Notes: generated by a model from the sequence alone, not told the origin. Shown: positions 700 through 15,444, numbered from the stretch's first letter. The stretch: 64,000 bases of DNA from a virus (IMGVR_UViG_3300015606_001334:160001-224000); one strand, 5' to 3'. Numbers and translations: made by a program.

Positions 700-2190
700 T
701 TAGTCGTTGCGTTCACCATAAGCGCGAGCGCGAATGGTTTCAAGATCGGTGAATTCCTTGAACCAACCACAGTCGTAAATGACTTCCATGATGTCTTCCC
801 ATTCCGGATTGGTGGGTTCATCAGGGTTGGTCGGCAGGGTCATGATCTCGCCAGTCAGACGGCTACGGTAGGTGTTGAGGAAACCAGCCTTGGACTTCTT
901 ACCGGGATCGGTAATCGGGTCCTTGAAGATTTCTTGCCACTTACCATCGACCTTGATGGCGCAAACCTTCTGAGCGAACTTGTAGGTATCGCGGTTCAGC
1001 TTTTGCAGCAATGCACCACCAGAACCGAACACCAAGTTCTGCGCAGAGTAGCCAAGATCGGTCACCAGTTGCAGAATCTTGCGGATCATCTCGATGTCGA
1101 TGCCATCGCCTTGGATGACGCCAACAGTGTTGATGACCTTATAGCCCTTGCTGTTAACAGTGAAGCCGAAAGTTGCAGCTTGCATGTCAAGCAGACGAGG
1201 AATGACTTCCAGCGGATCACCACTGTCAGGACGGAAGACGATACGAGCGCCGGACTTTTCGATCTGTTCCTTGAATTCAGTGCAAAGCAGCATGGATTCG
1301 CGGTACACGTCGTAACCGTCGAGCACGATCGAAACAATCGCACCAGGTTTCGCGTAGGTATCGAGGATCTTCTTCAGATATTCGCGTTGACGTTTCGGAC
1401 CGAACGAACACTGGATGCTGTGCTCAGTTGCAGGAACCGAGAAAGCAGCCATCGTGCAGTTGTAGTAGAAATTCGCAGCACGGATACCAGAGATGGTGTC
1501 AGAGCCAGTGAAGTTGACCAAGTGGGCCATGCCGCCGATCTGGGCGGATTCTTCAGAACTTACCCCACGGCCGCCAAAGTCATGCAACATGAACGGCAGA
1601 CCAGGATACTTGCCACGAAGGGTCGTTGCACCAGGAACCGGATCAACAGAGAGTTCGAAGAACTGTTCGATCACCTTGCGGATTTCGTAGTCCATCGAAG
1701 CAATCGTGGTCGGATACCAAACGGCACGCTGCATGGAAGTTTCGAGGTAGGAGGCAATCCATGCGACTTTCTTGTCTTCGCAGGTCGCGACATACAAGGC
1801 GTTGGCAGAAGGAATGGGGATACCTTCCTTGACGGCCTTGATCTTGAGGGGAATGAAGCCGTTGTACTTTTCGACGATGTATTCCCAAGGTTCACGGTCA
1901 AACGGTTCACCGTGGGCCTTTGCGAAATCTTCAGCTTCGTCGATCATGTCGATCGTAATCGGAGTGGAGAGGCGTTTGCGAATCCACATTTGGAGACCGA
2001 TCGGAACGACGATCTTGCCCTTGATGCGCGGCTCACCGTACGAAACTTGACCTTCCATCTCGTCCGGATAGACGGGACCGTGGGACAGTTTGTAGGAATC
2101 GGCGTCGAGGATGAAGTTTACCCCAAGAACATTGGGATTTTCGCGTTGGATTTGGCGACGGATTGCACGAGGCAGATCATTAAAATTCAT
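700..2190 (-). CDS. nadV: nicotinamide phosphoribosyltransferase (NAMPT)
   Basis: DADSYKLSH, WYPTTIAS, LHDFGGRG, SVPATEHS, FRPDSGDP, IQGDG, FGSGGALLQ, KDPITDPGKKSK motifs of NAMPT. Confidence 0.96.
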   Translation of the reverse strand: MNFNDLPRAIRRQIQRENPNVLGVNFILDADSYKLSHGPVYPDEMEGQVSYGEPRIKGKIVVPIGLQMWIRKRLSTPITIDMIDEAEDFAKAHGEPFDREPWEYIVEKYNGFIPLKIKAVKEGIPIPSANALYVATCEDKKVAWIASYLETSMQRAVWYPTTIASMDYEIRKVIEQFFELSVDPVPGATTLRGKYPGLPFMLHDFGGRGVSSEESAQIGGMAHLVNFTGSDTISGIRAANFYYNCTMAAFSVPATEHSIQCSFGPKRQREYLKKILDTYAKPGAIVSIVLDGYDVYRESMLLCTEFKEQIEKSGARIVFRPDSGDPLEVIPRLLDMQAATFGFTVNSKGYKVINTVGVIQGDGIDIEMIRKILQLVTDLGYSAQNLVFGSGGALLQKLNRDTYKFAQKVCAIKVDGKWQEIFKDPITDPGKKSKAGFLNTYRSRLTGEIMTLPTNPDEPTNPEWEDIMEVIYDCGWFKEFTDLETIRARAYGERND

Positions 2191-2774: not shown

Positions 2775-2986
2775 TATCGTTCTCCGAGCGAGGCATTGTG
2801 GAGGTTCACAATATGCGAAGCCACCTCACGACCAAGATTGAAGGCGATGGCAATTTGCATGTTAACAAATTTGAACTCCAGCTTAACCTTGTACTCTTCT
2901 TCTGTAAAGATAGAGCTATCTTTTACGGTCCAGCGGACCTTACGAACATCAACACTCATCTTCTTCATCTCCATAGAATTCTTCAA
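2774..2986 (-). CDS. hypothetical protein
   Basis: 70-aa ORF overlapping purA-like 3' end; start uncertain. Confidence 0.5.
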   Translation of the reverse strand: MKNSMEMKKMSVDVRKVRWTVKDSSIFTEEEYKVKLEFKFVNMQIAIAFNLGREVASHIVNLHNASLGER

Positions 2987-4220
2987 TATGTTGCGGATTC
3001 ATCAACCTGCCTTCAGTGATGAGGTAGTCTTCTTCACCATGACACATAACCACATGAGAAGCATTGATGCGTGTACCAAATTCCGCAGCGAAAACCTTAG
3101 GTGAAAACATGTAAGGCCTACCATCAAGTACTGCGGGAAAACCATTTTCGCCAACAGCTTGATCTAGACAGGTAATAGCCAAAGAAATTCTACCAATCCT
3201 TTTTACAGGAACTTTGAACTGGTCCTTCAAGATCCGAGCGATCGCATCATCGATATCAAGAATGGCGAGTCGCAGAGAACCTTGGAATTCATGCGGCTTG
3301 TTGGTTTCATCGACCACATTGAATAGGCGACCAAAGCCATCCTCTCCGTCGGTGATTTCACGCTTCAACGGTCCTGCGCCATGGCGGGTGAGGTACGGTC
3401 GGGTCACATAAGCAAGGTTGATAGGATCATCAATCTTTGCGGTGTCAAGAACACGGAGGACATTGTCGATACCAGTGAAAGACCTCGTCACATGAGGAAA
3501 ATCCGCAGACTCCTGATCGAGTGCCAGTCCTTGAGCACCTTCAAAAACGAGGTTATCAAACTGATTCAATGCCTCAGCCTCATCCATGACGATTACCCGC
3601 TCAAGGAAAGCTCGACATTGTAGCTCATATTGATGGTAGACATGGCGCAGATTCCCCATCACGACGTTGTCGATGCCGAGTTCTGCCAATCTCATTGGTA
3701 TGTACTCACCAAGGATGGCATTGATCTTCATGCAAAGGGTAGGACGATGGATGATGTCCTCAACCGTCAGTTGAAAATCGCAATAGTCGTAACCATGGCG
3801 TTCGACAGTCTCACCGAAGCCAACACCAACTGAGCCATGTCGGCCATCGCCTCGTGCACGCTCAATCTCTTGATTGATAAACATATCCCATGGTGTAGTG
3901 ATGGGACATTTCGGATCCACGTAGATGTCAGGCCTGATGACTCCCTTTCGGATCAGCTCGTTGTTCTCCTTCATGAACAGGTACGGAGAGCAGACGAAAT
4001 CCTTCGTCAAGATGGTAGGGATGTAGTCAAAGCTTCCAGAGCCGAAGTGCGAGAACACATGGCGCTGACGACCACTGACGACCGTATGTCCTGCTTGGGC
4101 ACCACCATTAAATCGGACGACTGCGCACTTGTCGTAATTTTTAGCGGCGAAGTAGTTGGTCATACGACCTTTACCTTCGTCGCCGTAGTTGGCGCCAATG
4201 ACGACTTGAATATTTTTCAT
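2949..4220 (-). CDS. purA: adenylosuccinate synthetase-like protein (divergent PurA family)
   Basis: GANYGDEGKG P-loop with catalytic Asp, RFNGGAQAGHT, FEGAQG, FPHVTRS, LTRHGAGP. Confidence 0.85.
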   Translation of the reverse strand: MKNIQVVIGANYGDEGKGRMTNYFAAKNYDKCAVVRFNGGAQAGHTVVSGRQRHVFSHFGSGSFDYIPTILTKDFVCSPYLFMKENNELIRKGVIRPDIYVDPKCPITTPWDMFINQEIERARGDGRHGSVGVGFGETVERHGYDYCDFQLTVEDIIHRPTLCMKINAILGEYIPMRLAELGIDNVVMGNLRHVYHQYELQCRAFLERVIVMDEAEALNQFDNLVFEGAQGLALDQESADFPHVTRSFTGIDNVLRVLDTAKIDDPINLAYVTRPYLTRHGAGPLKREITDGEDGFGRLFNVVDETNKPHEFQGSLRLAILDIDDAIARILKDQFKVPVKRIGRISLAITCLDQAVGENGFPAVLDGRPYMFSPKVFAAEFGTRINASHVVMCHGEEDYLITEGRLMNPQHIEEFYGDEEDEC

Positions 4221-5596: not shown

Positions 5597-6520
5597 TTAC
5601 AGGCCGAGCGCGTGACGAACTACAGCTTGAGCCTTACTGTTTTCCCAGCTACCGATGACCTTTTCAGGATCAGCGCCTTCATTGACTTCCATGACGGAGA
5701 TGATGACTTCCGAAATGTAGTCGTAGTCGCTCAACAGAATTGCCTTCTTGCCGAGCAGGTTGCGCCATTTCGCAACAGTATCGTTGCGGCTTTGGCTGTA
5801 AGAACAGTGACTGCCTTGTTCACAGATGATGTGGAAGACGTTGTACTTTTCTTGGGCCAGTTCAAGCATTTCCTTGGAGGAATAGCTCTTTTCTTCGCCA
5901 CCGTTAAAGATGTTGTTGATCTGAGCAGAGGTGAGACCTTGAGGCGGTGGCGGCTCATCACCAATCGTGAACAGATAACCCTTTTGACCGCGCTTTTCGA
6001 AGCAGTCGATTGCGGTACGCTTACCAGCGAAGTACCACGGAATGTCGTACGACTCGAAAGCGTTACCACCACCGCCACCTTCCAGCCACAGTTCCTTCAG
6101 TTGTTCAGCGATACGAATATCGGCTTCGAACTGAGAAACTTGCAGAGGAGCACGATCGCAGAAGGCGTCGCCAATAGCCATGACCATCACGTGCGGATCA
6201 TCGACCGGCTTGCGGGTGAGGATACCATCAACCAGTTTGCCGAGACCTTCAGTTGCAATCTTTTCAGCAACGATGCCCATGGAACCAGTAACGTCCAGGC
6301 CGAGGATGATCGCGTTGGAATTCGGATTGGCTTCGGAATCGCGAGATTCGCGGAGCATCACGCCCTTCGGATCAAAGATCGACTTGATGGAAGTTTGCTT
6401 GAAAACTTGAGCACGAGCTGCGGTATCGGAAAAACCTTTTGCGCGAGCAGTACTCAAAGTTGCGGAAGTTGCGCTTGCATAAGCGCGATAATCATTGTTG
6501 TCCCAACGACTGTAACCCAT
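5597..6520 (-). CDS. von Willebrand factor A (vWA) domain protein
   Basis: IILGLDVTGSMG MIDAS motif, GGGGNAFESY, LFTIGDE; start set at MGYSRW behind AGGAG RBS. Confidence 0.85.
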   Translation of the reverse strand: MGYSRWDNNDYRAYASATSATLSTARAKGFSDTAARAQVFKQTSIKSIFDPKGVMLRESRDSEANPNSNAIILGLDVTGSMGIVAEKIATEGLGKLVDGILTRKPVDDPHVMVMAIGDAFCDRAPLQVSQFEADIRIAEQLKELWLEGGGGGNAFESYDIPWYFAGKRTAIDCFEKRGQKGYLFTIGDEPPPPQGLTSAQINNIFNGGEEKSYSSKEMLELAQEKYNVFHIICEQGSHCSYSQSRNDTVAKWRNLLGKKAILLSDYDYISEVIISVMEVNEGADPEKVIGSWENSKAQAVVRHALGL

Positions 6521-6531
6521 CTTGATTCTCC

Positions 6532-7179
6532 TTAAAAACAATCTGCTTCATCGATACCACCGAACATTTCTTGGTCAATGTCGTAATCAACATAACCATA
6601 TTGGTCTTTTACGTACTTCTTCGAAACCGTTTTAAATGTAAGTGGATCAACTACTTGCTTTTCGTAAACTTGCTGAACCGGCTTTTTCTTACCACCGAAA
6701 ATTCCAGTATCATTCTTGAGCTTTTCATCCCGAGCGATCAGAGATTTTGGGTCATAAATTGCACCGTTGATCTCGACCTCGTACATGTCAGGCTTTCCAG
6801 AAGCATTCTTCAATCTACCAATGACATAAATGTCTCTGTTGTTGTAGACTTCAGGATTACCAGGGCCTTGCATGACCGAAGCAATCTTTGCTGCTGAATG
6901 ACGTTGGACATATCCTACATGGTTGAACTTGTCGTACTTCCAAACAAGGACCTTGTAAGCATTTTTGTCGTATGCATTCGTCGGTTCGGCCTTCAAAAAG
7001 ATTCTAGCGCCAGGACCAACTTCTTCCAACATACGAGTTGCCCATGCGCCGCGATAATACTGACCGACGATAGGAACTACGAGTCCAGATAACGAAGGAA
7101 CCGGTTTGATTCCTTCATTAGCCGTCGCATTGGTGGAAGGAGAAACCTTCTCTCCTTCCTTACCTGAACCCGTTACTCG
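6532..7179 (-). CDS. HIRAN-domain region, probably expressed as the -1 frameshift extension of 7173..8036
   Basis: LKAEPTNAYDKNAYKV...HVGYV HIRAN motif; first HIRAN strand (VVPIVGQYYR) lies upstream of the first ATG (7032) in an open frame with no start codon. Confidence 0.7.
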   Translation of the reverse strand, partial: RVTGSGKEGEKVSPSTNATANEGIKPVPSLSGLVVPIVGQYYRGAWATRMLEEVGPGARIFLKAEPTNAYDKNAYKVLVWKYDKFNHVGYVQRHSAAKIASVMQGPGNPEVYNNRDIYVIGRLKNASGKPDMYEVEINGAIYDPKSLIARDEKLKNDTGIFGGKKKPVQQVYEKQVVDPLTFKTVSKKYVKDQYGYVDYDIDQEMFGGIDEADCF

Positions 7180-7185
7180 AAAAAA
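7080..7185 (-). promoter_or_regulatory. putative -1 programmed ribosomal frameshift signal
   Basis: U_UUU_UUC heptamer (7179-7185), 6-nt spacer, 13-bp stem (7160-7172 with 7080-7092) enclosing two further hairpins. Confidence 0.75.
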
Positions 7186-8036
7186 CTCTTGCCGCCCTTG
7201 TTACCACCCATGAGCTTCGACATGAGCATCATCTGCATCATGCCACCCATCGGGTTGGCAGCAGCCGGAGCTGCAGGAGCTGTAGCCTTTACGGTAGCCG
7301 CAGCTTCAACGATCTTGGCCCAAGCAGAAATTGCTTCCTGATAGGCAACCAATGCTTCGTTGTTGCGCTTGTTGATTTCGACGATTTCTGCCTTGGTAGC
7401 AGAAGCAGGAATGTCTTCCTGAACCAGCTTCGGTTGAGCAGGAATTTCGATGGCGACGCCACCAGCTGCTGCCGGAGCGGCCTGATCTTGACCCATCATG
7501 CTCATCATGAGCATCATTTGGACCATGTCACCAGCATCTTCATTGGTGGAGCCGGCCATCAGCATCGGCAGCATCATTTGGAAGTTTTGCTGGCCAGTAG
7601 CACCGGTCAGGGAGAAGAGGTTACGGAGAACCATGACGCCAGATTGATCCATGCCCATGGTAACGACCTTGTTGCGGCGCAGAGTGCCTTCGCTGGAGTC
7701 GGTGTTCAGAAGGATCAGAGAATTCGGGTTCTTTTCAACAACCCAGCCCGGACGACCACCAGGACGGAAGGCCAGATCACCGAGTTGGACGTCATCGAAC
7801 GGGACGCTTTGAGCGAAAGCCGGAACGGCCATGCCGAATTCAGAGAACATGTTTTCAACGACTTGGGCTGCTTCGCCTTCGCCGTTCAGAGAGAAGATGG
7901 AACCGTTCTTGCCGAGGATACCCATCTTACCGGTGGAAATATCCCAAACGACGTCCTTGACCGGCTGGAACATTCGAGCCAGCATCTTGTCGCCGATGGT
8001 TTGACCGAACTTGTTAAGTGCTTGATTTGCTTGCAT
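7173..8036 (-). CDS. hypothetical protein with Met/Ala-rich C-terminal half
   Basis: 287-aa ORF with repeated MMLPML/MMQMMLM segments; GGAG RBS inside hairpin. Confidence 0.85.
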   Translation of the reverse strand: MQANQALNKFGQTIGDKMLARMFQPVKDVVWDISTGKMGILGKNGSIFSLNGEGEAAQVVENMFSEFGMAVPAFAQSVPFDDVQLGDLAFRPGGRPGWVVEKNPNSLILLNTDSSEGTLRRNKVVTMGMDQSGVMVLRNLFSLTGATGQQNFQMMLPMLMAGSTNEDAGDMVQMMLMMSMMGQDQAAPAAAGGVAIEIPAQPKLVQEDIPASATKAEIVEINKRNNEALVAYQEAISAWAKIVEAAATVKATAPAAPAAANPMGGMMQMMLMSKLMGGNKGGKSFFE

Positions 8037-8089: not shown

Positions 8090-8119
8090 GATCGATTGAG
8101 TTATTCAACCGATACATAA

Positions 8120-8148
8120 ATTATATACTAATTCCAGAAAGAGTAAAC
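8120..8148 (-). promoter_or_regulatory. early-type promoter GTTTAC-N17-TATAAT
   Basis: Recurrent motif; T4-early/sigma70-like. Confidence 0.8.
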
Positions 8149-11052: not shown

Positions 11053-11583
11053 TTAACTTTCCTTCTTTTCTAATTTCTTTTTAAACTCGTCAACGATAAT
11101 AGGATCAACGTACTGCTCGACGATTCGTTCCCAACCTTGGAAGCCAACAAGACCCTTCACTGTAGAAGAGCTGACTTCCGTCATAGCTGAAGGAGGGATG
11201 AAGAAAACGGTCTCAACATTCGGGTTGATCTTGCGATTGACTTGCTGAATCTGTGATTCGTAGTTGAAGTCTTCTGTGTTGCGAATACCGCGGAAGATAT
11301 ACGAAGCTCCAATCTTACGAGCGTGGTTGATTAGCAACTCATCGCTGATAGTTTCAATGACAATGTTCTCAAACAGCGAAACTGGAAGAGTATTGTGAAG
11401 GACTGATCGGATTTGTTGCTCACGCTCCTCAACAGAGAAGTAACCTTTCTTCGCTGAGTTCGTGCCAATTACGACATGGAGTTTTCCATCAGGAGCAATC
11501 ATGCCTCCAGCAGCTCGAATCAGCCACATGTGACCGAGAGTAATTGGGTCGAATGAGCCTGCAACAATTCCAATCTTAGCCAT
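11053..11583 (-). CDS. coaD: phosphopantetheine adenylyltransferase
   Basis: AGSFDPITLGH, FRGIRNTEDFNYE, ETVFF, VSSSTVK motifs. Confidence 0.93.
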   Translation of the reverse strand: MAKIGIVAGSFDPITLGHMWLIRAAGGMIAPDGKLHVVIGTNSAKKGYFSVEEREQQIRSVLHNTLPVSLFENIVIETISDELLINHARKIGASYIFRGIRNTEDFNYESQIQQVNRKINPNVETVFFIPPSAMTEVSSSTVKGLVGFQGWERIVEQYVDPIIVDEFKKKLEKKES

Positions 11584-11585
11584 TT

Positions 11586-12032
11586 TTATTTCCGAATTTC
11601 GATATCAGGGACGATTGCAGCCGGCTTAAACGTAACACGATAGTTGTACTGGCTGACGTTGGACGGTTCCATTTGTTCAGCGAAGTAGGTCACGTTTTCA
11701 GAAATGCCGAGGAAGCTCTTCTTAAAGCTGTTCGGACCAGTCTTGCAGGTAACAGCTACCGCCTTGGTTTCAGAAGCGCTGCCAATCGAGCAGAGACCTT
11801 CGATAACCAGCATATACTCGCCGTTCATGGTGTTGTAGAAAACAATTCGACGATTGATTTCGAAATTGTCGGCAGCCTTCTTCAAGTTGTCTGAAGCAAT
11901 TTGCGCATCACTACACCCAACTGCTAGTATACCAATCAGACATGCTGAAATAATGATAGTCAGAATATTCGTTATCTTCTTGTGAGTTTTCATTTCTTGG
12001 TTCATTTCAATCTTTCTTTTGTAGTTGCTCAA
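11586..12032 (-). CDS. putative lipoprotein
   Basis: Hydrophobic signal ending LAVGC lipobox; true start likely downstream of 12032. Confidence 0.7.
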   Translation of the reverse strand: MSNYKRKIEMNQEMKTHKKITNILTIIISACLIGILAVGCSDAQIASDNLKKAADNFEINRRIVFYNTMNGEYMLVIEGLCSIGSASETKAVAVTCKTGPNSFKKSFLGISENVTYFAEQMEPSNVSQYNYRVTFKPAAIVPDIEIRK

Positions 12033-12660
12033 TTAGTATCTTGACATTTTCACGTCCGATTTGTTCCCAACCTGCATCTTTGGCAAATTCAGAAAAGTAC
12101 AGCTTTGGTCGTCCCAAGAAGCTTTGAAGGACTTGGGTACGGCCATGAGAATAAATCTCGTCATTGTATTGAGAGAATTCTTTACGAATGTCCTTCTCAA
12201 ATTGTTGTAGACGTTTTTCAGTTTCAGAAAGAATTCGAAGATCTGCATCAAGGAACATTTTGATGTCTTCAATTTCGGCTTCGGAGAACTTTCCACGATT
12301 TCGAACTCGATCAAGAGTATGACCTTTAGTGCAGCCGATCATCGCCAAAGCTAGACGAACGGTCCGATATTCGGGATCATCAATGTCAAGATCCTTCAAA
12401 TGAGGATTGTCTTCTTCAATCTTTTCGAGAAACATTCGACACGAGTTGATTTCATTGTGCTCATAGGCTTCATCAACTTCGTAGACGATATCATGAAATT
12501 CTGCAGCAAGTTCAGCAGCTCTAAAGTTACTGAACTTGTGCTTCATTAGATACAGAGTATCAAGCACATGACAAACATGTGCGTAGTTATGGTAGTGTCG
12601 ATGCTTCCTGCTAAGCTCTTTAAGCAGAAACTTTCGAGTCTTGTCGCTGATCTGCAACAT
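12007..12660 (-). CDS. HD-superfamily metal-dependent phosphohydrolase (COG4339-like)
   Basis: RHYHNYAH, FHDIVY, TKGH, FLDADLRIL, IRKEF. Confidence 0.85.
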   Translation of the reverse strand: MLQISDKTRKFLLKELSRKHRHYHNYAHVCHVLDTLYLMKHKFSNFRAAELAAEFHDIVYEVDEAYEHNEINSCRMFLEKIEEDNPHLKDLDIDDPEYRTVRLALAMIGCTKGHTLDRVRNRGKFSEAEIEDIKMFLDADLRILSETEKRLQQFEKDIRKEFSQYNDEIYSHGRTQVLQSFLGRPKLYFSEFAKDAGWEQIGRENVKILIEQLQKKD

Positions 12661-13288
12661 GGAAGAAAACCTTTCTGAACTTGTGCTTCATTAGGTCGGT
12701 TACATGAACATCACAATGACCATGAGTATTGTCGATGACGTAATCGGCGTTTTCAATCTTGTACTGTTGAGGTACTTGAGTTGACATTATATCACGAACT
12801 TTTTCTTCTGTAAACCCGTCGCGATTTTTGACGCGTTGTACACGAACTTCGTCGTCAGCTGCAACCACGATAACCTTGACCTTGGTTCGAACCAATTGCA
12901 TTTTGGTAGAGAGCTTCTTCATCTCGAAGAACATTGGCATCTCGATCACCATGGTATTCACAGGCTTACGATTTACCAGTTCGATGAATTTGTCTTCAAC
13001 CAGCTTAAAGAAGAATTGGTTGAGCTCATCCAGGAGAATTTTGGTTGTTTCGGTTTTACCAAGCTGTCGACTCTGATTGAACACGATGTCGCTGATTTCC
13101 TTTTTATCGGAGGTGCCAAACATCGTTTTCAGGAACTGCTTGACATCCTCTCGTTCGTACAACTCTCGAGTGTAGTCATCAAAATTGAAGAAGCCAACTT
13201 TGACTTCAGAACTCCGCTTAATGGACTCGATCACGCTCGACTTGCCGGAACCGATCCCGCCAGTAATTACAATGGTTTCAATTTTCAT
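12620..13288 (-). CDS. coaE: dephospho-CoA kinase
   Basis: ITGGIGSGKSSV P-loop, IEMPMFFE, RVKNRDG, IMSTQ, ADYVIDN. Confidence 0.9.
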   Translation of the reverse strand: MKIETIVITGGIGSGKSSVIESIKRSSEVKVGFFNFDDYTRELYEREDVKQFLKTMFGTSDKKEISDIVFNQSRQLGKTETTKILLDELNQFFFKLVEDKFIELVNRKPVNTMVIEMPMFFEMKKLSTKMQLVRTKVKVIVVAADDEVRVQRVKNRDGFTEEKVRDIMSTQVPQQYKIENADYVIDNTHGHCDVHVTDLMKHKFRKVFFHVADQRQDSKVSA

Positions 13289-14289: not shown

Positions 14290-15384
14290 TTAGAGATTAC
14301 CAACCAACTTTTGCACGATGAATGAGTGATCTTCGAACATCATGTTTTCCATTTGCTTGAACTCAGCAAGAGGGACCCATTTGACTCGAGTTACATCACA
14401 TTCAGGATCGGTGTTACCTTGCTGTGAACCCTTGACTTTCGGCAGACCTTCTGGAACGGCATCCAAAGCGAAGTAGAAACCGAAGGTAACGGTACGACCG
14501 CGAAGAGAACGCTCAGGATCGTCGAAGTAATCGCGATTCTTGACTGAACCACGAAGTTTGGCTTCAGGAACCTTGATCTTCGTTTCTTCTTGCAGCTCAC
14601 GGATGACGGCATCGAAGATACGTTCTTTCGGATTCACGAAGCCGCCAGGCAGAGCCCAAAGACCTTCACCAGGCATAGCACCACGACGGACAAGAAGAAT
14701 GTGACCGGCTTGGATTACCACTGCATCAACAGTGATAAAAGTCGGTTCATAAGGAGCGGCTTCCCAAGCGCCCTTATACTTCTTGACATGTTGGTATTCT
14801 GATCGGAAACGGTCAGCTTGATCGCGCTCAGTCGAGAAGAATTCTTCGATCCAGTGCATTGCTGCACGAGGGATGTCATTGCGAATCGATTCAGGAAGAG
14901 CGTGAACGTTCAGGTAACCAGTGGATTCAAACAGGAAGTTGCGAATTTCAGTTGCGTTGATCTTGCCGAATTCTTCGATTTCGACACGTTCCCACTGAGG
15001 GAAAAGGTCAAGGTAGAAGGAGGTGTGATCACGCTTGAAACCGATGATGCCGATCTTTGCATCATCTTTGTCGGTCTTGACGTTGACGACAGCTTGAACT
15101 TCAGACAGCCAAAGTTCATCGTTGTACGGATAGTCGTGGATCGGTACGACCTTGACGCGCTTTTGTGAAATGCCTTCATCCTTGAGAACGGCACGAATCA
15201 TGTTTTCACGTTGTTGTGCAGTCCACGGGTTACGGATGTTATTTGCGCGATTGCTACTGCCAAGAAGAATGAGAACTTCATCAGCTTGGTCGAGAGCGGC
15301 CTTCAGAGTTTGAAGGTGACCGTTGTGAAATGGTTGAAAACGGCCGATGTAGACGATGCTGTCGAACTTGCGAGTCTTAGACAT
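14290..15384 (-). CDS. nadM: bifunctional NMN adenylyltransferase / Nudix ADP-ribose pyrophosphatase (NadM-Nudix, NatV-like)
   Basis: YIGRFQPFHNGH, RNPW, INATEIR; Nudix box GGFVNPKERIFDAVIRELQEET; RSLRGRTVT, FEDH. Confidence 0.95.
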   Translation of the reverse strand: MSKTRKFDSIVYIGRFQPFHNGHLQTLKAALDQADEVLILLGSSNRANNIRNPWTAQQRENMIRAVLKDEGISQKRVKVVPIHDYPYNDELWLSEVQAVVNVKTDKDDAKIGIIGFKRDHTSFYLDLFPQWERVEIEEFGKINATEIRNFLFESTGYLNVHALPESIRNDIPRAAMHWIEEFFSTERDQADRFRSEYQHVKKYKGAWEAAPYEPTFITVDAVVIQAGHILLVRRGAMPGEGLWALPGGFVNPKERIFDAVIRELQEETKIKVPEAKLRGSVKNRDYFDDPERSLRGRTVTFGFYFALDAVPEGLPKVKGSQQGNTDPECDVTRVKWVPLAEFKQMENMMFEDHSFIVQKLVGNL

Positions 15385-15385
15385 A

Positions 15386-15444
15386 TATAGAGCTCCTCTA
15401 TAAATATTGATAAATTGTTGGTCTTTCCAACAGGAATATTTATT
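15386..15444 (-). promoter_or_regulatory. two-hairpin leader element, copy 3 (nadM-Nudix)
   Basis: mRNA: AAUAAAUAUUCC-UGUUGG[AAAGA]CCAACA-linker-UAUAGAG[GAG]CUCUAUA-U-AUG. Confidence 0.8.

Follow-up and report, generated by a model that had tools for sequence, protein, structure and literature searches.

A predicted −1 ribosomal frameshift in the last codons of a methionine-rich phage protein would append a HIRAN domain, in a gene neighbourhood of NAD salvage

We have found that the gene for a methionine-rich protein of 287 amino acids (aa) in a jumbo phage very probably ends in a programmed −1 ribosomal frameshift site, through which some ribosomes would continue into a HIRAN domain and make a second product of 501 aa; we put the probability of this at about 0.93. 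The gene lies in the window, by which we mean the whole 64-kb stretch that was analysed (IMGVR_UViG_3300015606_001334:160001-224000), itself part of a single contig of 359,550 bases (43% GC; a genome of ~360 kb). Coordinates are those of the window, and all features of the locus are on its minus strand (Table 1). At the level of sequence, the comparisons described here establish the signal, its phase, the stem that follows it, the appended domain and the joint presence or absence of these elements across the family. Ribosomes reaching the last codons would pause at a stem 5 nucleotides (nt) downstream, with tRNA-Phe in both the P and A sites on U_UUU_UUC; most would read on, add Glu and stop, giving the 287-aa protein, and a minority would slip back by one base and translate a linker and HIRAN, leaving the junction ...KSFF-RVTG.... 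The long form is probably the minor one, at a few to a few tens of percent, and the two products may be made at a fixed ratio, as for a minor subunit of an oligomer.

The 3' end of the gene reads AAG AGT TTT TTC GAG TAA, within which the heptamer (T7185 to C7179) stands in the phase that fits a tandem slip of two tRNA-Phe, just as an earlier note made from the sequence of the window had proposed. The same note held that the −1 frame is closed just before the heptamer and then open, with no usable start, through HIRAN, and this agrees with what we find: the frame is shut by TAA at 7203-7201, 5 codons before the heptamer, and then runs for 215 codons, from 7179 to its stop at 6532. The two products that the note had predicted follow from the frames, the fusion being 286+215 = 501 aa (~54 kDa, against ~30 kDa for the short form). 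Residues 35-104 of the −1 frame (7077..6868) match the Pfam HIRAN family, PF08797 (E 3e-9; 37 bits against a cut-off of 24.7). Between the heptamer and the first HIRAN strand the window has no ATG, GTG, TTG or CTG, and the single ATC there, 13 codons before that strand, has a Shine-Dalgarno (SD) energy of −1.8, compared with about −8 for real starts, which amounts to no SD. The first ATG, at 7032, is residue 50, and the HIRAN match begins 15 codons upstream of it. An AlphaFold model of the −1 frame, matched by Foldseek to the HIRAN domain of HLTF (4s0n) and to lp_0118 (3k2y) at E 2e-4 to 1e-3, places a strand at residues 34-38, and since this strand precedes residue 50 a start at 7032 would cost the domain its first strand. 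A profile search of the PDB aligned the NxYD motif of the −1 frame with the stretch of HLTF that holds Y93/D94, which bind the 3'-OH (PMC5773155). As to the HLTF pocket residues more generally, a Tyr pair follows the first strand, Y72 lies outside the aligned part, and the Tyr before the Asp varies in distant lineages. The chance level of such sites can be judged from the genome, where a heptamer stands within the final 7 codons of 17 of the 564 open reading frames (ORFs) of at least 100 aa; only two of these 17 also have a −1 frame open for at least 100 codons, and the one other than the 287-aa gene is an ordinary ATGA gene overlap. Two further kinds of recoding were tried and rejected: after stop readthrough frame 0 stops again within ~33 codons, and the +1 frame closes after 4 codons, neither of them encoding HIRAN.

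The frame-0 stop lies at the foot of an outer stem of 13 base pairs that encloses two long hairpins in a three-way junction. The earlier note had described this structure correctly in outline, but the outer stem as written holds three G-U pairs and not four, and in the lowest-energy fold it starts 5 nt, not 6 nt, after the heptamer. The segment 7190..7060 folds at −48.9 kcal/mol (z −4.07), which none of 200 shuffles equalled. Across eight members of the window clade, 93% of the cells of the RNAalifold structure are paired and 10 of 30 pairs carry a compensatory change, which surpasses 500 of 500 shuffles and every slid control; because the structure was derived from these same sequences, the changes support selection on the stem but do not prove it. 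Both the spacing and the branched form agree with rules drawn from IS3-family elements, whose stimulators start 4-10 nt downstream of the site, and motifs with UUY in the A site are among the shifty ones in E. coli (PMC4066793); the stimulator of IS911 is a three-way junction (PMC5009743). Rfam returned no match for the stem, nor for the leader hairpin described below.

Some 70 homologous loci were gathered from metagenomes, IMG/VR and cultured phages and dereplicated to 53, with N-domains down to 30% identical (L### and P#### are our labels for the loci and proteins compared). We place 28 on the HIRAN side (22 scored with a hidden Markov model, three assigned by alignment or linker and three weak) and 25 on the side without HIRAN. 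At all 28 loci a HIRAN or HIRAN-like frame lies in the −1 phase and is open across the stop; among all HIRAN hits next to the gene the sole exception is L053/L057, where the frame is broken by a deletion. A perfect X_XXY_YYZ heptamer stands in the last codons of 25 of the 28 HIRAN loci (28/28 within one mismatch), against 2 of the 25 others (Fisher p 1e-9, uncorrected for the kinship of the loci). The heptamer is kept at the 3' end wherever HIRAN follows, in a sequence that is specific to the lineage: U_UUU_UUC in the window clade (invariant in the close clade) and in Rhizobium phages, G_GGU_UUY in Ralstonia RP13 and Roseobacter RDJL3, C_CCU_UUY in two IMG/VR groups and A_AAU_UUU in L055. These four different perfect heptamers occur in lineages that are 30-60% identical, the identity of the N-domains being mostly 30-50%.

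The strongest point for a frameshift, as far as sequence can tell, is a control that the choice among synonymous codons provides. Where the protein ends in Pro-Phe, the codons are CCU-UUY in 11 of 11 HIRAN loci and in none of seven others, which have CCC, CCA or CCG; where it ends in x-Phe-Phe, they are xxU UUU UUC in 11 of 11 HIRAN loci, again against none of seven. Folding energies for the 100 bases that follow the site are −30 to −51 kcal/mol at complete HIRAN loci, with z mostly −2 to −7, and most of these loci have a long outer stem 4-7 nt after the heptamer that encloses at least one hairpin, even though the stem sequences of different lineages are unrelated; loci without HIRAN are mostly near shuffle level, with L022, L051, L052 and L054 having hairpins but no heptamer. 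At most HIRAN-less loci the gene is followed immediately by the ribosome-binding site for the vWA-like gene downstream. Because about half of the family, as the earlier note had not seen, lacks the whole cassette of heptamer, stem and HIRAN, the fusion is, to judge by these loci, an optional add-on. HIRAN status changes seven times on the tree, at least five of these changes being forced by supported branches in the first tree; gain and loss are indistinguishable on the tree.

We note several variations on this arrangement. Compared with the near-identical L055/L058, the L053/L057 pair has lost part of the −1 frame through a deletion ~130 nt after the end of the gene, which leaves heptamer and stem intact but takes the HIRAN-like part out of phase; this may be a natural loss in progress or a misassembly. 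In the RDJL3-like phages (L007, L063, L065 and L074) the linker contains CxxC repeats that match the Pfam DnaJ central domain below its cut-off (E 2e-5), so that the long form would there also gain a zinc-finger-like element. In L040-L042, which have no HIRAN, the gene end at 2615 reads A_AAA_AAG UAG, with an SD-like GGGAG ~12 nt upstream, an unrelated −1 frame of 80 codons that has an ATG 5 codons in, and a weak downstream fold (z −1.1); these loci may have a second frameshift, of the dnaX type and with another partner.

A number of observations weigh against the frameshift or limit what can be claimed for it. Kinship inflates the counts given above: only three independent pairs lie on supported branches, and these agree in 2.7 of 3 on average, too few for significance in a sign test (median p 0.25). 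Six of the 28 loci were placed on the HIRAN side on soft grounds: for L006, L009 and L055 the match is at the level of a motif only (E 0.007-0.016), and L019, L043 and L074 were assigned from the linker or the alignment. A start in the linker with a fair SD is possible in L005, L013, L038 and L049, and L023 and L040 have a perfect heptamer despite having no HIRAN. The long form must be dispensable in the half or so of the family that has no HIRAN. We found no in-frame HIRAN fusion among ~200 homologues, in a search that was weak for longer proteins. Finally, the link to NAD (nicotinamide adenine dinucleotide) salvage comes from gene neighbourhood and a common leader only.

The main mechanistic alternative is that HIRAN is a separate gene, translated from a weak or non-canonical start in the linker or from the ATG at 7032, with the stem regulating translation or serving as an RNA-processing site. 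Gene callers and GenBank records do annotate it as an ORF of its own, stand-alone HIRAN proteins such as lp_0118 exist, and besides the ATC of the window the linkers of some relatives offer a TTG, GTG or ATG with an SD energy of −5 to −7. However, the ATC is without an SD and the ATG at 7032 lies inside the domain, no start position is common to the loci, and the databases call starts at four different places. The earlier note had named homologues with an independent in-frame start and no heptamer among the findings that would overturn its proposal, and it is because no such start is conserved that we regard a separate gene as very improbable; it would also leave the fixed −1 phase, the frame that is open back to the heptamer and the choice of slippery codons unexplained. 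A search with the HIRAN alignment returned no viral loci, and the upstream gene was present for 3 of 3 close HIRAN proteins that were traced.

The chances are slimmer again that the fusion arises by transcriptional slippage, RNA polymerase adding a U on the T run. The window clade has six consecutive T's, which is short for polymerase slippage, and what makes this route unlikely is that several lineages, those with C_CCU_UUC and G_GGU_UUC, have T runs of three or four only; moreover, the stem lies 3' of the site at a spacing suited to the ribosome. As the site is a homopolymer, the break might also be put down to faulty sequencing, or to a once-fused gene having recently undergone a frameshift mutation, but the likelihood of this is negligible. 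The same break is found in many independent assemblies and in the cultured phages RHph_TM2_3B, RHph_TM30, RHph_Y65, RP13 and RDJL3, the C-terminus is Phe-Phe plus 1-3 residues in all 40 close homologues (at least 68% identity), and no fused form was found. An assembly error, which the earlier note had itself raised, is excluded because independent assemblies and cultured phages agree. We therefore return to the programmed −1 ribosomal frameshift as the best explanation of the locus.

Table 1. Features of the locus and its surroundings (window coordinates).
Feature	Coordinates	Strand	Remarks
Sigma70-like phage promoter, TTTACT-N17-TATAAT	8119..8147	-	From a whole-genome pattern scan; class found across the genome; function predicted
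Leader hairpin, 10 bp, G-AUAGA-C loop	8065..8089	-	Common to the NAMPT and NadM-Nudix genes
Frame-0 gene, 287 aa, ~30 kDa	7173..8036	-	Beta-rich N-domain, SH3/KOW-like barrel at residues ~74-138, Met/Gly-rich helices
Slippery heptamer U_UUU_UUC	7179..7185	-	X_XXY_YYZ in phase; both tRNAs Phe
Three-way-junction stimulator	7079..7173	-	Outer stem 7173-7161/7091-7079; inner hairpins 7159-7135 and ~7118-7092
−1 frame, 215 aa	6532..7179	-	Linker of ~32 residues, HIRAN at ~33-141, variable acidic tail
vWA-like gene, LDVTGSM motif, phrog_2971	5597..6520	-	Ribosome-binding site overlaps the HIRAN stop codon
PurA-like gene (adenylosuccinate synthetase family)	2949..4220	-	Scores under the curated cut-offs for PurA and PurZ
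NAMPT/NadV-like gene	700..2190	-	Leader hairpin in common with the 287-aa gene
NadM-Nudix (NMN, nicotinamide mononucleotide, adenylyltransferase) gene	14290..15384	-	Upstream of the locus; leader hairpin in common

The 287-aa protein is 9.4% Met and belongs to a family of 463 representatives at 50% identity; Pfam, PHROG, NCBIfam, a sequence search of the PDB, and Foldseek against the PDB and the ESM Atlas did not match it to any named family. In the structure model the beta-rich N-domain is confident and the Met/Gly-rich helices come after the barrel. The folds closest to the barrel are HEX-1 (Z 8.9; root-mean-square deviation 2.1 over 65 residues), domain I of eIF5A (7.0) and EF-P (6.8), with the KOW domains of NusG/Spt5 also among them (VIA Z range 8.9 to 5.7); such a match names the fold of the barrel and not its function. 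A prediction of a complex of four copies of residues 10-185 scored 0.26 against a mark of 0.42, and we count it neither for nor against self-association. A terminal Phe motif is common across the entire family, whose members are found in phages of 55 to 380 kb with hosts from Rhizobium and Roseobacter to Ralstonia and Acinetobacter. The single locus from a cellular genome, L074, is probably a phage contig inside a metagenome-assembled genome. The protein has no structural PHROG match, and the frame-0 family is apparently non-structural. No virion proteome was found for any carrier. Bacillus phage G has a distant relative in gp39 (L075:8840-9880), which lacks both heptamer and HIRAN and on which the text of the paper on phage G is silent. 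Distant members occur in Firmicutes phages (L075; P0055, P0061, P0069, P0182 and P0192), many of them with long and unrelated N-terminal extensions, so that the frame-0 domain appears in in-frame N-terminal fusions as well.

The genes around the frameshifted gene are those of a nucleotidyltransferase and of vWA-like, PurA-like, NAMPT and NadM proteins, with no major tail or tape-measure context, in keeping with the earlier note's view that this is not a tail-chaperone setting. On the minus strand the order is promoter, hairpin leader, 287-aa gene, HIRAN frame, vWA-like gene, three ORFs, PurA-like gene and NAMPT; the product of 5597..6520 we take to be vWA-like from its LDVTGSM motif and general knowledge. 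In most related loci the vWA-like gene comes after the frameshifted gene, and the PurA-like gene is part of the same conserved module; NAMPT or NadM is often nearby in addition. Within the stretch fetched around the gene, the Ralstonia, Roseobacter and Acinetobacter carriers are without these module neighbours. The HIRAN stop overlaps the SD of the vWA-like gene at 6520-6535, and the rate of frameshifting could affect translation of that gene. In several close relatives an ORF of ~240 aa on the opposite strand separates the two (minus strand, L018:4342-5064, L068:3480-4193 and L070:3501-4214); its faint NUMOD3 match suggests that it is probably a homing endonuclease. A CoaD-like gene that scores above the cut-off of NCBIfam TIGR01510 is found at 11053-13288 in the window, close to HD-like and CoaE-like genes, and in L015 a cluster resembling this one stands immediately upstream of the homologue. 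The vWA-like gene is accompanied by the PurA-like gene in ~200 mycobacteriophages as well; in the single one inspected (Mycobacterium phage ScottMcG, cluster C; L076) the pair follows a kinase gene.

The earlier note had also claimed a leader RNA common to the 287-aa gene and the NAD genes, and the claim holds up across the genome. The 359.5 kb contain exactly three hairpins with a G-AWAGA-C loop; they lie before the NadM-Nudix, NAMPT and 287-aa genes and ~15-25 nt upstream of the SD, with the loop kept and the stems varying (the other two copies are at ~2225-2239 and ~15416-15432, minus strand). Close relatives keep it before the 287-aa gene, also with varying stems, and hairpins with the same loop precede NAMPT or NadM in the distant phages L015 (6205), L024 (177) and L039 (757). 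The hairpin is a candidate protein-binding operator of a phage NAD regulon. NAMPT and NMN adenylyltransferase constitute the NARP2 pathway that counters NAD-depleting defences (10.1101/2024.02.11.579819).

Taken as a mechanism, the frameshift is of a known type, and that it is a real feature is strongly supported by the sequence comparisons: a shift in the last codons yields a minor extended form, as for G/GT of bacteriophage lambda and 10A/10B of T7. In lambda G/GT, too, a slip on a heptamer near the end of the gene gives a major short and a minor extended product, and it is the position of the site, not its sequence, that is conserved (Levin 1993; Xu, Hendrix and Duda 2004; PMC5009743). The gene considered here, however, does not lie between major tail and tape-measure genes and belongs to an unrelated protein family, its extension is HIRAN and is missing in about half of the family, and the 3' structure is strong and conserved. 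The lists we searched gave no tail-chaperone family match for the 287-aa protein, though a remote kinship may exist all the same. T7/T3 10A/10B and the Ig-like domains appended by frameshifting resemble it in that a minority of the copies acquire an optional, mobile domain through a shift within the last codons (Fraser 2006; PMC5009743), and T7 uses a site of the G_GUU_UUC type with a Phe codon in the A site (PMC5009743). Those are virion proteins with surface domains, whereas here the setting is a metabolic module and the appended HIRAN would, by analogy, be a binder of nucleic-acid 3' ends; Ig-like domains also occur in frame, unlike HIRAN in the homologues we searched. Because context and appended domain differ, the gene is a member of neither the lambda G/GT nor the T7 10A/10B family. 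The IS911/IS3 family shares a heptamer followed within 4-10 nt by a branched hairpin of ~60-130 nt (PMC5009743, PMC4066793) but uses A_AAA_AAG, not a UUY-type site, and in our case no upstream SD stimulator is seen and no transposase is involved.

The HIRAN domain itself has the fold and the NxYD pocket motif of PF08797 (HLTF, lp_0118), and differs in that it is predicted to be expressed only as a recoded C-terminal extension; it is strongly diverged in L006, L009 and L055, and preceded by a Cys-rich, zinc-finger-like linker insert in L007, L063, L065 and L074. As for NARP2, its Nampt and Nmnat genes are present in the window and flank homologues in many loci, but the pathway consists of two enzymes, of which the frameshifted gene is neither, and the available part of its description (10.1101/2024.02.11.579819) does not present the 287-aa gene, HIRAN, the vWA-like or the PurA-like gene as belonging to it. 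The NARP3 paper and a NAD-ADPr survey do not mention the frameshifted gene. A literature search on HIRAN, frameshifting, vWA, adenylosuccinate and the carrier phages, which left most subscription journals outside its reach, found no description of the system, and the GenBank records examined annotate two separate hypothetical genes, none of them with a frameshift.

What the two products do can be suggested only tentatively. The likeliest reading, at odds slightly below even, is that a module for NAD and nucleotide salvage has in the short form an abundant scaffold or adaptor that associates with itself, and that a few HIRAN copies tie the assembly to DNA 3' ends. Such a module would include the vWA-like and PurA-like proteins, and the free 3' ends would be nicks, breaks or replication intermediates. 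A fuller version of this scheme, in which a phage module not described before and co-regulated with NAD salvage comprises, beside a Met-rich scaffold of the SH3/KOW type, a vWA-like protein and a PurA-like ligase, and a recoding cassette (synonymous-codon heptamer, stem and HIRAN) that was gained or lost several times lets a few subunits anchor on DNA 3' ends, is as a whole rather unlikely. We consider it doubtful, and a good deal less probable, that the protein is instead an RNA-binding regulator, whose KOW-like barrel would bind the G-AWAGA-C leaders of its own and the NAD-salvage mRNAs, with the HIRAN form linking this control to nucleic-acid 3' ends. The folds nearest to the barrel and the restriction of the hairpin to three genes, its own included, as in autoregulated operons, would fit such a role; however, Z scores of 6-9 for a small barrel show no function, the hairpin was found before the 287-aa gene in the window's own clade only, and NadM-Nudix or a host protein could equally be what binds it. 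It is less probable again that both forms are virion proteins, in which case frameshifting would, as it does for capsid and tail genes, determine how much is made of a minor internal protein holding the end of the packaged DNA. Structural or assembly genes are indeed where most known phage frameshifts occur (PMC5009743), but this gene lies among metabolic genes behind a sigma70-like promoter, and its lack of a structural PHROG match and the wide range of genome sizes of the phages that carry it also speak against a place in the virion.

Nearly every phage frameshift that is well supported is in a tail chaperone or a virion protein, and the one described here is in a large and apparently non-structural family. 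This family is its own control, in that the same C-terminal amino acids are written in slippery codons only where HIRAN follows, and it provides, ready-made by nature, a set of bacterial shift sites of the UUY type and of branched stimulators. The findings also correct how cultured phages are annotated, their HIRAN ORFs having been called with starts in the linker or within the domain. The locus also points to an unstudied four-gene module beside the anti-defence NARP2 enzymes, for which the common leader hairpin provides an entry to regulation. If the fuller scheme is true, a module anchored in this way might, for example, rebuild NAD or nucleotides, or protect ends, wherever the host's defences sense or cleave the DNA of the phage.
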